Shown: piece after piece, positions 1-3,330 of the stretch
Numbering within the stretch: the first letter of the stretch is position 1
Layout of the letters: each line of letters opens with the position of its first letter
Assembly: GCA_032161105.1 (NCBI GenBank)
Contig: JAVHTD010000037.1
Origin: Candidatus Thermosaccharophagus tengchongensis
Lineage (GTDB): Bacteria > Armatimonadota > Fervidibacteria > Fervidibacterales > Thermosaccharophagaceae
Length of the DNA: 16,188 nt
Reading direction: 5' to 3' (one strand)
Translations under genes and position numbers: made by a program
Notes under the pieces: generated by a model
Databases searched by the model: none
What the model was told of the DNA's origin: nothing
Seen by the model: only the letters and a program-made list of their open reading frames with translations

Positions 1-435
1 GAATGCAACCCTTGCAAGCGTCGTTTCATTGGTGACGAATCCCTGGTCAAACTCCTGAATCGCATCCGGACGCTCAAGCGATATGCGATTGAAATTTTCA
101 ATGACATCGTTCCCCAAAGCATTTATATCAACCGACCTACCGCAGCAACTTTTGCAAAGTGCTGAAGTGAACGGAGCTATACCATTGTCATCGCACAGCT
201 GCTTGCCGCTCTCTGTAAGCCTGATTGAGCCATCCACGACCTCTATGAATCCGTGCTCATTGAGCAGCTCAAGGAGCGTGCAAAGGACTCGCATTGGGAC
301 TTGGCTGCGCTCAACAACCTCCCAAATGTCGTCAGTGGTGCGAAGCGCCATCAGCGTTCTTTCAACATCCCTTGGTCCGACATAGGTTTGTGAACGCTCA
401 CAAAGCTCACTACGCAAACGGTTCAGCGTCACCAT
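1..435 (-). CDS. bpsA: N4-bis(aminopropyl)spermidine synthase (branched-chain polyamine synthase A, DUF43 family), N-terminal 145 aa; truncated by the window edge
   Basis: Manual minus-strand translation from ATG at 435 (SD GGAGG at 445-441) is open to position 1: MVTLNRLRSELCERSQTYVGPRDVERTLMALRTTDDIWEVVERSQVPMRVLCTLLELLNEHGFIEVVDGSIRLTESGKQLCDDNGIAPFTSALCKSCCGRSVDINALGNDVIENFNRISLERPDAIQEFDQGFVTNETTLARVAF. It follows the recalled Thermococcus BpsA pattern: D-x-W-x-V-V, winged-helix LT-x-x-GK, CxxC-x-GR, and RP-x5-FDQ-x-[FY]VT-x-ETT-x-ARVA. Confidence 0.9.
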   Translation of the reverse strand, partial: MVTLNRLRSELCERSQTYVGPRDVERTLMALRTTDDIWEVVERSQVPMRVLCTLLELLNEHGFIEVVDGSIRLTESGKQLCDDNGIAPFTSALCKSCCGRSVDINALGNDVIENFNRISLERPDAIQEFDQGFVTNETTLARVAF

Positions 436-459
436 ACGCACCTCCGGCTCACGGTTGGC

Positions 460-498
460 AAAAATAAAACGCCTGCTTCCGCCGCTCAGGGAAGCGGC
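460..498 (-). terminator. Intrinsic terminator (attenuator) between the promoter and the bpsA start
   Basis: Minus strand: GCCGCUUCC (498-490), loop CUGAGCGGC (489-481), GGAAGCAGGC (480-471, one bulged A), then G and UUUUAUUUUU (469-460). It ends about 15 nt before the bpsA SD. Confidence 0.8.
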
Positions 499-629
499 TC
501 CCAATTAACCATCGTCACCTTTCTCGGATACGCGCTACTACTCCCCCTCAAATGGGTTGTAGTAGCTGCGATGGCTTACGCATCCGCATGAGCGGCAAAG
601 GCGACGATGGATTCACCAGCTTTGCTGGT
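460..629 (-). ncRNA. Unclassified structured 5' leader RNA (riboswitch/attenuator-like) of bpsA
   Basis: 5' hairpin ACCAGC-AAA-GCUGGU (629-615). P1 is 14 bp, CCAUCGUCGCCUUU (610-597)/AAAGGUGACGAUGG (522-509). P2 is 8 bp, CGGAUGCG (586-579)/CGUAUCCG (532-525). P3 is 8 bp, GCUACUAC (566-559)/GUAGUAGC (541-534), with an apical CCC/GGG. P1 and P2 each contain a G-U pair on the minus strand that would be an A-C mismatch on the plus strand. Flanked by a promoter and a terminator. Confidence 0.75.
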
Positions 630-634
630 TACAC

Positions 635-663
635 ATTATAGCTTGAAATGGACTGGATGTAAA
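635..663 (-). promoter_or_regulatory. Sigma70-type promoter driving the leader and bpsA
   Basis: Minus strand TTTACA (663-658), 17-bp spacer, TATAAT (640-635). Predicted TSS about 628-629, exactly at the first leader hairpin. Confidence 0.8.
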
Positions 664-811: not shown

Positions 812-1321
812 ATGGGAAAGGGATTGGATGAGTGGGACATTTCACAGTTGAGCATTGAGAGGATGAGATTGAGCGATCTGGATGAAGTGATGGAACTTGA
901 ACGGATGTGCTTCACGCAACCTTGGACGCGAGGCATGTTTGAGAGCGACTTACTTCAAGGCGAATTCACATATTACATCGTCGCAAGGCTTGAGGGGAAG
1001 CTTGTAGGTTACGCCGGGATGTGGACCGCAGGCGGTGAAGCTCACATAACGACGATTGCCGTCCATCCAAACTTTAGGCGAAGGGGAATAGGAAGCGCTC
1101 TGATGCGCATGTTGCTTGGGGAAGCACTTAGGAGAGGTGCTGAAATAGCTGTGCTTGAAGTCAGGCGCAGCAATGAGGCTGCACAACAACTTTACAAAAA
1201 ATGGGGCTTCAGACTCGTTGGAGTGAGGCGCGGCTACTATTCAAATCCGCCGGAAGATGCTCTCATCCTTGAACTGCCTCTAACTGATTATGCGGTGAGG
1301 ATGCACAGCGATGCGAGATGA
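812..1321 (+). CDS. rimI: Ribosomal protein S18-alanine N-acetyltransferase (GNAT)
   Basis: Motifs DLDEVMELERMCFTQPW, EAHITTIAVHPNFRRRGIG (acetyl-CoA binding), LEVRRSNEAAQQLYKKWGF and RRGYY...EDA. Exact start uncertain. Confidence 0.88.
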   Translation: MGKGLDEWDISQLSIERMRLSDLDEVMELERMCFTQPWTRGMFESDLLQGEFTYYIVARLEGKLVGYAGMWTAGGEAHITTIAVHPNFRRRGIGSALMRMLLGEALRRGAEIAVLEVRRSNEAAQQLYKKWGFRLVGVRRGYYSNPPEDALILELPLTDYAVRMHSDAR

Positions 1322-3330
1322 ACTCACATGCACATAACCTCAAGGGAGATCAAGCGAGGGAAGGAAAGTTGAACCCGCTCTCTGAGGGCACTCAAGTTGG
1401 GATGGCAAATGCGGTTTCTGTGGGCGTCTCGGAAAAGGGAATAACATGGCGTGCGCTTGCCATCGGCATCCCCTTGATGGTTGTGAATGTTTACTGGACA
1501 ACCGTTGTGGAAGTGCGATGGTATACATTGGACACAACGAGCTTGCCGCTGTTCATCACCCCGATCTTCATCTTGCTGTGTGTTGTGCTACTGAATGGCG
1601 CATTGAAGAGGCTTACCGGGTTCGGTTTATCCCCGGCGGAGCTGATTGCAGTTTATGTCATGCTTGTGGTATCAAGCTCACTCAGCGGGCATGACATGCT
1701 CCAAAACTTGTTTGGCAGCATGGCTCACGCAATTTGGTATGAGTCACCAGCTAATAGGTGGGCTGACCTGTTCCTTGATTATTACCCGAAGTGGCTGACG
1801 GTGACCGATAAAGAGGTGCTGCGTGGCTTCTACATTGGTGACAGCTCGCCGTATGATGCTCTGACCATTTTAACATGGGCAAAGGCGCTCTCGTGGTGGA
1901 CGCTGTTCATATCCTTCCTTCTGTGCATCATGTTCGGGTTGAATGCGATGCTTAGGCGCCAATGGACGGAACATGAAAGGCTCGCCTTCCCAATCATTCA
2001 ACTCCCATTGGCGATGGTTCACCCGACAGCGATTCGCTCATTTTGGTTGAACAGCTCAATGTGGCTTGGCTTCGCTACAGCTGCATTCATTGACATCGTT
2101 AACGGGCTTCACCAACTTTACCCGAGCTTCCCATACTTCACTTACATCAAGCTTTACAACTGGCATGACTTCATCACGAATCGCCCTTGGAGCGCTATAA
2201 GACCGCTGCGCACATCCATGTATCCGTTTGCGATAGGTCTGTGTTACTTGCTTCCGCTTGACCTCTCACTGTCGTGTTGGTTCTTCTTCCTCGTGCGCTT
2301 TGCCGAGCAGCTCTTTGGGGCAACATTCGGCTGGGATCAAGTCAAGGGCTACCCGTTCTTCAACCAACAGGCTGCCGGCTCTTGGATTGTGCTCGGGGTA
2401 TGCGCATTGCTCGGTTCAAGGCACTGGCTCAAGGAGGTAATCAGAAGGGCTATCCACGGCAAGGATGACCCAGAGGAATGCATGTCATACAGGCTCGCAC
2501 TCGCATTGGTGCTTATTGGGGCTGTGGGCATCTGTTGGTTCAGCTTCCGCATCGGTATGGGTTGGCTCTCAACAGTTGCCTTTTACTCCATCTACTTCTC
2601 TTATGCCCTCGCAATAACGAGGGTGCGCGCTGAACTCGGCGCACCACATGAGATCTACTTCGCTCAACCGAGATTTGTCATCGCCGACATCTTTGGGACA
2701 TCGCGCTTCCCCACGAAAGAGCTTTTGGCGATCAACATGCTTCACTGGTTCAATCGCGGCTATAGATGCCATCCTATGCCGAACCAAATGGAAGCGTTCA
2801 AGATGGCTCAAGTGATGGGCATACCACAGAGGGCAATGATGAAACTGCTCGTAGCCTCATTCGCGCTCGGCATGCCGATTACATACTGGGCTAACTTGCA
2901 TGTTTGCTACCGTGAGGGTGCTGTGACGCGCTGCAGGGGATTCAAGAATTGGGTCGGGTGGGAGTCATTCAATGTGCTGGCAAGCTGGCTGACAAGCCCT
3001 CAACAGAGGCAGTGGAGAAACATCTATTGGATGGTTGGCGGTGCAGCAGTTGTCATTGTGCTGCGATGGCTGCGGTTATCATTCACCGCCTTCCCGTTGC
3101 ACCACGCCGGTTATGCACTTGCCATATCGTTTGCGATGGACTACTTCTGGTTCGCCTTCCTCATAAGCTGGATGGCTAAATATTTCATCCTGCGCTTTGG
3201 CGGAATACAAGCGCACAGAAAAGCCATACCATTTTTCCTCGGACTAATACTCGGAGACTACACACTCGGAAGCTTTTGGGGCATATATGGTCCAGTTAAG
3301 GGTGTGGAGACATATCGCATCTACATCTGA
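1318..3330 (+). CDS. DUF6785/DUF6784-type polytopic membrane protein (putative OPT-like transporter)
   Basis: Many hydrophobic helices, with motifs typical of this family as I recall it: LSPAELIAVYVML, LRRQWTEHERLAFPIIQLP, ITRVRAELG, FPLHHAGY and C-terminal K..ILRFGG...RKAIPFFLGLILGD. The real start may be the ATG at 1402; the 1318 start overlaps the rimI stop (ATGA). Confidence 0.7.
   Translation: MNSHAHNLKGDQAREGKLNPLSEGTQVGMANAVSVGVSEKGITWRALAIGIPLMVVNVYWTTVVEVRWYTLDTTSLPLFITPIFILLCVVLLNGALKRLTGFGLSPAELIAVYVMLVVSSSLSGHDMLQNLFGSMAHAIWYESPANRWADLFLDYYPKWLTVTDKEVLRGFYIGDSSPYDALTILTWAKALSWWTLFISFLLCIMFGLNAMLRRQWTEHERLAFPIIQLPLAMVHPTAIRSFWLNSSMWLGFATAAFIDIVNGLHQLYPSFPYFTYIKLYNWHDFITNRPWSAIRPLRTSMYPFAIGLCYLLPLDLSLSCWFFFLVRFAEQLFGATFGWDQVKGYPFFNQQAAGSWIVLGVCALLGSRHWLKEVIRRAIHGKDDPEECMSYRLALALVLIGAVGICWFSFRIGMGWLSTVAFYSIYFSYALAITRVRAELGAPHEIYFAQPRFVIADIFGTSRFPTKELLAINMLHWFNRGYRCHPMPNQMEAFKMAQVMGIPQRAMMKLLVASFALGMPITYWANLHVCYREGAVTRCRGFKNWVGWESFNVLASWLTSPQQRQWRNIYWMVGGAAVVIVLRWLRLSFTAFPLHHAGYALAISFAMDYFWFAFLISWMAKYFILRFGGIQAHRKAIPFFLGLILGDYTLGSFWGIYGPVKGVETYRIYI

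Follow-up and report, generated by a model that had tools for sequence, protein, structure and literature searches.

A conserved leader RNA upstream of the branched-chain polyamine operon in thermophilic Armatimonadota: a candidate transcription attenuator with interleaved pairings

Comparative sequence analysis indicates that the DNA between the promoter and the start codon of bpsA, the gene for branched-chain polyamine synthase, in Candidatus Thermosaccharophagus tengchongensis encodes a real, conserved cis-regulatory RNA of a previously undescribed type with a well-defined switching core. The reading that we prefer, which we hold tentatively and which falls somewhat short of probable, is that this leader is a cis-acting transcription attenuator and a candidate riboswitch of the bpsA-pdaD-speD-speE operon. 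A pseudoknot together with an intrinsic terminator would form the OFF state, an antiterminator would form the ON state, and the likely effector would be a polyamine. Searches of the main texts of freely accessible papers, with matches judged by title or abstract, returned no report of such a leader for bpsA, for branched polyamines or for Fervidibacter. The full-text literature searched also contained no description of how bpsA or branched-polyamine synthesis is regulated, and a riboswitch goes unmentioned in the available parts of a 2026 review on branched polyamines (PMC12979288) and of the paper on Fervidibacter sacchari (PMC11535203).

Results

Architecture of the leader

The window, the whole stretch of 16,188 nt that was analysed, carries the leader close to one end and on the minus strand. 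From 663 down to 433, the order of elements is a promoter, a structured leader of about 170 nt, a hairpin followed by a U-tract, and the Shine-Dalgarno sequence (SD) and ATG of bpsA (Table 1). The promoter, the stems, the terminator, the SD and the start codon had been proposed in a preliminary description made from this single sequence, and all of them were recovered at the same positions on that strand. Based on a promoter scan, the site at 663-635 is the top-scoring promoter-like site of the entire window. The small hairpin near the 5' end (629-615) is kept as a hairpin only in the closest relatives of the window.

Table 1. Elements of the bpsA leader in the window, listed from the promoter to the coding region.
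Element	Position	Strand	Description
Promoter	635..663	-	sigma-70 type; -35 TTTACA 663-658, 17-nt spacer, -10 TATAAT 640-635; 11/12 consensus matches
5' hairpin, ACCAGC/GCUGGU	615..629	-	near the likely transcript start
P1 5' strand, CCAUCGUCGCCUUU	597..610	-	14 bp with 522-509
P1/P2 internal loop	between P1 and P2	-	asymmetric: 10 nt (5' side), 2 nt (3' side)
X0 heptamer, GCCGCUC	590..596	-	5' side of the P1/P2 internal loop; putative pseudoknot strand
Distal domain	525..586	-	P2, bulge, P3 and 17-nt loop
P2, 9 bp	586-578 with 533-525	-	predicted by RNA folding
Bulge, 11 nt	577-567	-	between P2 and P3
P3, 8 bp	566-559 with 541-534	-	predicted by RNA folding
P1 3' strand, AAAGGUGACGAUGG	509..522	-	pairs with 610-597
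Linker from P1 to expression platform, 10 nt	499..508	-	variable, often A-rich (alignment by eye)
Terminator hairpin	498-471	-	followed by U-tract UUUUAUUUUU at 469-460
X1, terminator 5' strand, GCCGCUUCC	490..498	-	498-492 can alternatively pair with X'1
Antiterminator hairpin loop, CCCU	491-488	-	between X1 and X'1
X'1 heptamer, GAGCGGC	481..487	-	in the terminator loop; potential partner of X0 or of X1
X'2, terminator 3' strand, GGAAGCAGGC	480-471	-	then G, then the U-tract
SD, ATG and first 145 codons of bpsA	1..445	-	SD GGAGG 445-441, ATG 435-433; the contig end cuts the gene

RNAfold analysis of the minus strand from 630 to 430 (201 nt) gave a folding energy of -87.1 kcal/mol, compared with -67.2 +/- 4.4 kcal/mol for dinucleotide shuffles (n=200). 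The difference corresponds to a z value of -4.49, and none of the 200 shuffles was as stable as the leader. The fold of the opposite strand is 10 kcal/mol less stable, in agreement with the earlier assignment of the structure to the sense strand of bpsA. The terminator hairpin at 498-471 is formed by RNAfold as well. This G+C-rich hairpin lies on the sense strand and upstream of bpsA, and the U-tract comes directly after it, which are the features of an intrinsic terminator. A simple terminator scanner omits the hairpin owing to its 9-nt loop, as the scanner allows at most 8 nt.

The regulated operon

The open reading frame that follows the leader in the window encodes the N-terminus of BpsA, as identified by a match to Pfam BpsA_C. 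The rest of bpsA, followed by pdaD, speD and speE, opens another contig of the same genome (C34), so that the operon order reads bpsA-pdaD-speD-speE. Three relatives have, downstream of bpsA, genes for a pyruvoyl-dependent arginine decarboxylase (PvlArgDC), an S-adenosylmethionine decarboxylase (AdoMet_dc) and an aminopropyltransferase of the spermidine synthase family (Spermine_synth); one of the three additionally has a gene for an arginase-family ureohydrolase (Arginase). As set out in the available part of the 2026 review (PMC12979288), the thermophile route leads from arginine to agmatine, N1-aminopropylagmatine, spermidine and then the branched polyamine. Since the gene set of the operon is that of the thermophile route, the leader fronts the whole pathway, beyond a single enzyme. 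The preliminary description had assigned to the leader the control of bpsA. Its place directly upstream of bpsA holds in every case, but the downstream unit is the four-gene operon and is wider than bpsA. The divergent neighbour of the motif is a gene for a GNAT acetyltransferase. One metatranscriptome run contained only a 254-nt contig that corresponds to window positions 112-365, within the coding region of bpsA. At one locus with a long spacer (L021), a promoter scan found no second promoter between the terminator and bpsA.

Relation to known RNA families

Does the leader belong to a known RNA family? A search of the whole window against Rfam 15 at the gathering thresholds gave no match; such a search had been suggested for the leader at the outset, and no family reached its gathering threshold there. 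When the part of the window from 400 to 830 was searched with E values up to 10, the sole match was PyrR210, which scored 16.8 bits (threshold 59) and lies upstream of the transcript. Five related loci, searched with E up to 1, gave no match. Models of the SAM clan matched neither the window (E up to 10) nor the five relatives (E up to 1), and the leader is predicted to fold into one long hairpin or into a three-way junction, as against the four-helix junction of SAM-I. The earlier judgement by eye, that the leader lacks the consensus of several known leader classes, SAM-I and cobalamin among them, agrees with this absence of Rfam matches in the window and five relatives, and on the same searches we rule out membership in a known Rfam family.

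A repeat or mobile element is ruled out as well, as the motif has a single copy in its own genome and one true copy in each relative. In one genome (G001) the model gave a second match, which falls within an ORF of 773 aa. The preliminary description had named an Rfam match, other gene contexts, a repetitive nature and a lack of conservation as grounds for abandoning its reading; we looked for each of the four and encountered none.

Distribution and genomic context

BLASTN detected relatives of the leader in front of bpsA in each of the 3 other genomes that belong to the genus and in 2 of the 20 from the sister family. With a covariance model made from six sequences, the motif was identified in 22 of the 24 genomes of the order, with one true copy each, and in all 14 of the high-quality genomes. 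The two genomes of the order that gave no match are 61% and 63% complete. In a phylum sample of 151 genomes, the model matched all three genomes of f1, to which the genus of the window belongs, and all ten of f2, and no true match was obtained outside f1 and f2 in this sample. Four genomes of the phylum outside f1 and f2 gave weak matches (L028-L032), which were rejected as plain terminators or as a stretch that has neither P1 nor X0. The motif was not found in two bpsA-bearing families of the phylum, f17 (5/5) and f23 (1/1). In one family of the phylum other than those with the leader, an operator-like palindrome precedes bpsA in its place.

A DNA pattern made from the two invariant heptamers was run against some 186,000 species genomes and a metagenome collection. 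The loci that also matched the covariance model, 19 of 35 from genomes and 18 of 80 from metagenomes, were all of the Fervidibacteria type, and those with names came from Fervidibacter, Thermosaccharophagus, Caldisaccharidevorator or unclassified Armatimonadota MAGs. The pattern loci outside Fervidibacteria (16/35 genome and 62/80 metagenome loci) failed the model and were judged by eye to be chance matches. Many of the off-target loci lie in an apparently conserved coding region of Acidobacteriota. One locus (L102, 13.9 bits) was rejected for its absence of P1.

The total came to 52 matches, which represent 27 distinct sequences. About half of the sequences came from the DNA pattern that demands both heptamers; all 22 genomes that the model identified independently of the pattern carry them too. 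On the same strand, bpsA lies downstream at a distance of 19-180 nt in 51 of 51 loci. This comparison across genomes, which the preliminary description had proposed as a check, places the motif always upstream of bpsA and always in the same orientation. All 29 distinct upstream sequences have a promoter of the form TTGACA-17-TATNNT at the corresponding place, with scores of 8-11 out of 12, and the -10 element in these sequences ends 33-44 nt before X0. Because this layout, promoter included, recurs in 27 distinct sequences and is accompanied by covariation, the leader is more than a product of chance. All members come from one order, so the sequence counts overstate the number of independent events. 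The range of the motif is narrow, a single order of thermophilic Armatimonadota.

Covariation of the scaffold and the terminator

The P1 stem showed compensatory changes at all 13 of its 13 pairs over the 27 distinct sequences, with 97.1% of cells paired, and the terminator stem showed compensatory changes at five of eight pairs. None of 500 shuffles of the 27-sequence alignment matched the observed covariation values. Sliding the partner columns left 38-51% of cells paired, as compared with 89% in the actual alignment of the 27 sequences. Similar signals were obtained from the 19 sequences of the Fervidibacter genus (g2), where compensatory changes occurred at 9 of 11 pairs in P1, 4 of 8 pairs in P3 and 4 of 7 pairs in the terminator. 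By eye, all 27 distinct rows of the alignment show a U-tract of 7-10. The leader is a conserved structured element with covariation in the 5' UTR of functionally related genes, a layout and gene association consistent with a riboswitch.

The distal domain is the variable part of the leader. It consists of P2, a bulge and P3 in the genus of the window, of a three-way junction in the sister family (P2, P2a and P3, the last of which covaries), and of a plain 7-bp hairpin in one genome (L025). Across the Fervidibacter genus, the three-way junction is nearly invariant. The constant core therefore consists of the upper part of P1, the internal loop with the P2 base next to it, and the 3' hairpin. 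The strong covariation of the stems is of the kind that the preliminary description had named as support. The distal parts that it stressed, P3 and the second internal loop, are variable and are replaced in relatives. In J2/1, one family has GAG or GGG where the other has AGU or GGU, and the variation extends to the linker that follows X0. Overall, the unpaired junction bases are conserved less than those of most metabolite pockets. A K-turn made of P2, AGU and GA was considered and rejected, since the GA bases make covarying Watson-Crick pairs in P1.

Pairings of the two heptamers

X0 (GCCGCUC) is invariant in all 27 distinct sequences and is the exact complement of X'1 (GAGCGGC). The sole variation in X'1 is GGGCGGC, which occurs in three sequences and gives a U-G pair with X0. 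The seven pairs of X0:X'1 are 100% paired over the 27 distinct sequences, in which the identity of BpsA goes down to 49%. As for the two helices of the putative H-type pseudoknot, the terminator stem covaries; X0:X'1 is complementary at 7/7 positions in 27/27 sequences but is invariant save for three U-G cells. Because both strands are near-invariant, this pairing rests on the perfect complementarity of the two heptamers, without covariation. As judged by that complementarity, X0 and X'1 can form a predicted pseudoknot that links the internal loop to the terminator loop. X1 is separated from X'1 by 2-4 nt, and X'1 from X'2 by 0-1 nt. Such a geometry would fit an H-type pseudoknot, as 2-4 nt could span the deep groove of the 7-bp helix and 0-1 nt would allow coaxial stacking. 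RNAalifold offered a different partner for X0, the GAGC in the three-way junction; it is confined to g2 and absent in f1, L025 and L027, and was rejected.

When transcripts were folded with their end at X'1, a stage at which X'2 has yet to be transcribed, X'1 paired with X1 (GCYGCUY) in most sequences. The X1:X'1 helix is paired in 95.8% of 189 cells, compared with 30-70% in slid controls. X1 varies at six of its seven positions and still pairs with both X'1 and X'2. One pair of the X1:X'1 antiterminator carries a compensatory change. In the genomes with GGGCGGC as X'1 (3 of 22), X1 has the matching C, which amounts to a change from U-A to C-G. A BpsA tree was made with 20 BpsA rows and 5 unrelated rows, two cut genes being left out. 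Two of the three GGGCGGC genomes are sisters in a well-supported clade that excludes the third. Their placement implies that the double change, or its reversal, took place at least twice. X1:X'1 is a conserved alternative helix predicted to sequester the 5' strand of the terminator, as is characteristic of attenuators with a terminator and an antiterminator.

A longer antiterminator, made by extending X0:X'1 into the 5' strand of P1 and X'2, was rejected; it gains only 2-4 extra pairs and is lost where the terminator covaries, as in L104 (rows inspected by eye). A leader peptide was rejected too, for AUGs in the loop occur only in f1 and their ORFs have 3-13 codons and no SD. The two switching pairings, the X0:X'1 pseudoknot and the X1:X'1 antiterminator, do not figure in the preliminary description.

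Stability of the competing helices

Energies of the competing helices were calculated with the nearest-neighbour model, and the values at 70-85 °C that follow are rough model extrapolations. At 70 °C, the medians over the 27 sequences were -4.8 kcal/mol for the antiterminator, -5.5 kcal/mol for the terminator with its loop held unpaired and -7.2 kcal/mol for the free terminator. The calculated energy of the X0:X'1 duplex was -7.4 kcal/mol at 65 °C, -5.5 kcal/mol at 75 °C and -3.6 kcal/mol at 85 °C. Even when no pseudoknot is formed, the model gives the terminator somewhat greater stability than the antiterminator. Four members, G001, G002 and the two from g3, have a weak antiterminator, with about -0.2 to -0.4 kcal/mol at 70 °C. 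According to the available part of its description (PMC11535203), a cultured member of the class has a growth range of 65-87.5 °C. The competing helices are predicted to lie close together in energy and to be marginal at the temperature of growth, as a switch requires.

Discussion

How, then, could such a leader act on the operon? X0 sits in the internal loop of the P1/P2 scaffold hairpin, where it would mimic, as a decoy, the 5' strand of the terminator. In the ON state, X'1 would pair with the adjacent X1 to make the antiterminator; with X1 occupied, the terminator would not form and RNA polymerase would enter the operon. In the OFF state, the distant X0 would capture X'1, which would set X1 free to pair with X'2, so that the terminator would form and transcription would stop at the U-tract. 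The OFF state would amount to an H-type pseudoknot with the intrinsic terminator as its second stem. The helices would compete during transcription. The antiterminator is local and is made first, and it should therefore be the default state, with read-through. The pseudoknot is long-range and therefore should need help to win, which an effector would give. We consider this effector most likely to be a polyamine made by the operon, either spermidine or the branched N4-bis(aminopropyl)spermidine, which would bring about feedback repression. A polyamine is favoured because repression by the end products is the simplest control for an operon that makes them and because polyamines favour compact RNA folds. 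The known spermidine riboswitch, which turns polyamine genes OFF by termination, provides a precedent (PMC10853860, available part). We accordingly rank an OFF switch that responds to a polyamine above a non-selective gauge of polycations and temperature, which is its main rival, and both above another metabolite of the pathway or a protein factor. The weak conservation of the junction bases between the two families tips the balance a little towards readings of lower selectivity.

The non-selective gauge would use the same switch without a ligand pocket, the pseudoknot reporting in a general way on the stability of RNA tertiary structure at the temperature and polycation level of the cell. Heat or a shortage of polyamines would melt the pseudoknot and favour the antiterminator, turning the operon ON, and ample polyamines would favour the terminator, turning it OFF. 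All three competing helices are calculated to be marginally stable at 70-85 °C, within the range of 65-87.5 °C in which the cultured member grows (PMC11535203, available part). According to the available part of the 2026 review (PMC12979288), branched-chain polyamines confer stability on nucleic acids, ribosomes and tRNAs at high temperature. The poor conservation of the junction bases between families and the dispensability of the distal domain in L025 point in the same direction. However, the elaborate scaffold, with a three-way junction that is near-invariant in the Fervidibacter genus, suggests more than a passive holder, and we regard a pocketless gauge as rather unlikely. A protein could instead set the balance between pseudoknot and antiterminator by binding to the P1/P2 scaffold or to X0; a polyamine-responsive protein and the N-terminal domain of BpsA itself are the candidates that come to mind. 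Such a protein-dependent attenuator would account for the poor conservation of the junction bases outside the pseudoknot and could use the long regular stems as a binding platform, and the operator-like palindrome before bpsA in another family of the phylum makes protein control plausible. It is nevertheless distinctly unlikely, as no gene for a candidate protein was seen in linkage with the motif, whose divergent neighbour encodes a GNAT acetyltransferase, and the complete switch is contained in the RNA alone.

The same platform of pseudoknot and antiterminator could also serve a riboswitch for a different metabolite of the pathway, such as SAM, dcSAM, MTA, agmatine or arginine. The operon encodes a SAM decarboxylase and an arginine decarboxylase, and its enzymes use such compounds as substrates or release them as by-products. 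Against them stands the lack of any resemblance to SAM, SAH or other known Rfam aptamers, and a pseudoknot as the bound state would make an OFF platform, which fits an end product better than a substrate; such a riboswitch is improbable in our judgement. Least of all do we favour the absence of a switch, in which the leader would be a constitutive structured element for stability or processing, or would end as a terminated small RNA acting in trans, and the alternative pairings would be by-products of G+C-rich repeats. The prediction of the terminator as the most stable local fold would suit it. Yet a strong terminator that stands 25-180 nt in front of an operon for an essential pathway, with no second promoter in the scan of L021 alone, calls for control of read-through. 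Moreover, X1 keeps its pairing with both X'1 and X'2 while varying at six of seven positions, and X0 stays the invariant exact complement of X'1. A leader without switching function is highly improbable on these grounds.

A bolder reading would make the leader the first riboswitch-like sensor linked with branched-chain polyamine synthesis, in which formation of a pseudoknot at 65-85 °C depends on the polyamines made by the operon itself and in which the expression platform is of a new design. We regard this reading as possible but doubtful. If it is true, the cell would gauge whether RNA tertiary structure holds and would tune polyamine synthesis to temperature. Fervidibacter sacchari, a member of the class, is in culture and its transcriptomes are published (PMC11535203, available part), and for this reason the leader switch is directly testable. 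A compact, heat-stable switch of unusual topology would be at hand should the mechanism be true.

Attenuators of the trp type have mutually exclusive leader helices, 1:2, 2:3 and 3:4, which decide whether the terminator forms. The present leader resembles them in that mutually exclusive helices would govern a hairpin with a U-tract. It differs in that the pairings are 1:3 and 2:4, interleaved as a pseudoknot, against 2:3, and in that there is no leader peptide. Cobalamin riboswitches form a kissing interaction between a loop of the sensor domain and the loop of the hairpin in the expression platform, and here too the loop of a platform hairpin is predicted to pair with the loop of an upstream domain. 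The fold and the ligand domain are different, however, the Rfam cobalamin models give no match, and the docking strand of the present leader would double as a decoy for a local antiterminator. The preQ1-I, SAM-II and fluoride riboswitches have a ligand-favoured H-type pseudoknot that captures a strand of the alternative helix of the expression platform. The strand-capture logic that we propose is common to these riboswitches and the present leader. In contrast with them, the second stem of the pseudoknot here would be the terminator itself, and the capturing strand lies about 100 nt upstream in the internal loop of a large scaffold, with no similarity in sequence or model. To our knowledge, interleaved pairings of 1:3 and 2:4 against 2:3, with an upstream decoy copy of the terminator 5' strand, are unusual among known systems. 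If true, a decoy strand that steals the partner of the antiterminator, with the terminator as the second stem of the pseudoknot, would be a new platform design.

We know of only one class of polyamine riboswitch, which re-used the SAM-I fold. In this spermidine riboswitch, a variant of the SAM-I aptamer, binding of spermidine switches expression OFF by termination, as described in the available part of Salvail et al. 2023 (PMC10853860). The two RNAs are alike in their position upstream of polyamine biosynthesis genes and in their use of an intrinsic terminator (PMC10853860, available part). The spermidine riboswitch retains the SAM-I fold, whereas the present leader matches no model of the SAM family and is predicted to form a long hairpin with an internal loop and a pseudoknot to the terminator loop. 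If the proposed mechanism is true, the leader would be a second, unrelated RNA, placed over the entire thermophile-type polyamine pathway, and it would show how hyperthermophiles couple their polyamine supply to need.

Conserved and variable parts of the leader

The leaders of the genus Fervidibacter carry a conserved 5' tail, GGACAAUUUGGG(N)AA, between the -10 element and the P1 stem (e.g. locus L019, positions 1465-1512), and this tail likely lies at the start of the transcript. A looser version, CAGCAAAGYUGG, is present in the genus of the window at 628-615. No partner pairing with the conserved tail was found. At the other end, in some Fervidibacter leaders a long spacer separates the terminator from the gene, with about 180 nt from the U-tract to bpsA at loci L021 and L023. 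The spacer contains a TTGACA hexamer, and a promoter scan of L021 detected no -10 element to match it.

The search pattern built from the two invariant leader heptamers also matched a conserved 142-nt stretch in Acidobacteriota (L034, L037, L038, L041, L054, L064 and several metagenome loci). This stretch reads as coding DNA. We rejected it as a member of the leader group and regard it as a chance match with no relation to the motif. It presumably resembles succinyl-CoA synthetase beta.

Genomic context and transcription

In the genome under study, bpsA is split across two contig ends, and about 80 codons are absent between them. A 254-nt metatranscriptome contig from sediment (run X18) matches window 112-365, within bpsA, with 4 differences; it bears on the bpsA part only and says nothing about the leader. 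On the divergent side, the GNAT gene and the DUF6785/DUF6784 gene overlap at the GNAT stop. The relative G001 shares the GNAT neighbour (L156:6585-7118). Polyamines or a ribosomal protein are both conceivable as the putative GNAT substrate.

Features flanking the leader and the remainder of the operon
Feature	Location	Strand	Remark
bpsA, 5' part	window 1-435	-	cut by contig end
bpsA remainder, then pdaD, speD, speE	G000:C34:1-1876 (L178)		
GNAT acetyltransferase gene	window 812-1321	+	divergent from leader promoter region
670-aa protein, DUF6785 + DUF6784 domains	window 1318-3330	+	

Control of bpsA in a related family

The bpsA genes of family f17 in the same phylum (L172, L173, L174 and L177) are without the leader. 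At all four loci a perfect palindrome, AGGGATACCCC-N3-GGGGTATCCCT, lies between the promoter and the bpsA SD, directly 3' of the TTGACA / TATTATAT promoter. The palindrome looks like a candidate repressor operator or a 5' hairpin. The same gene, bpsA, appears to be controlled by another solution in this family, with the palindrome in place of the leader.
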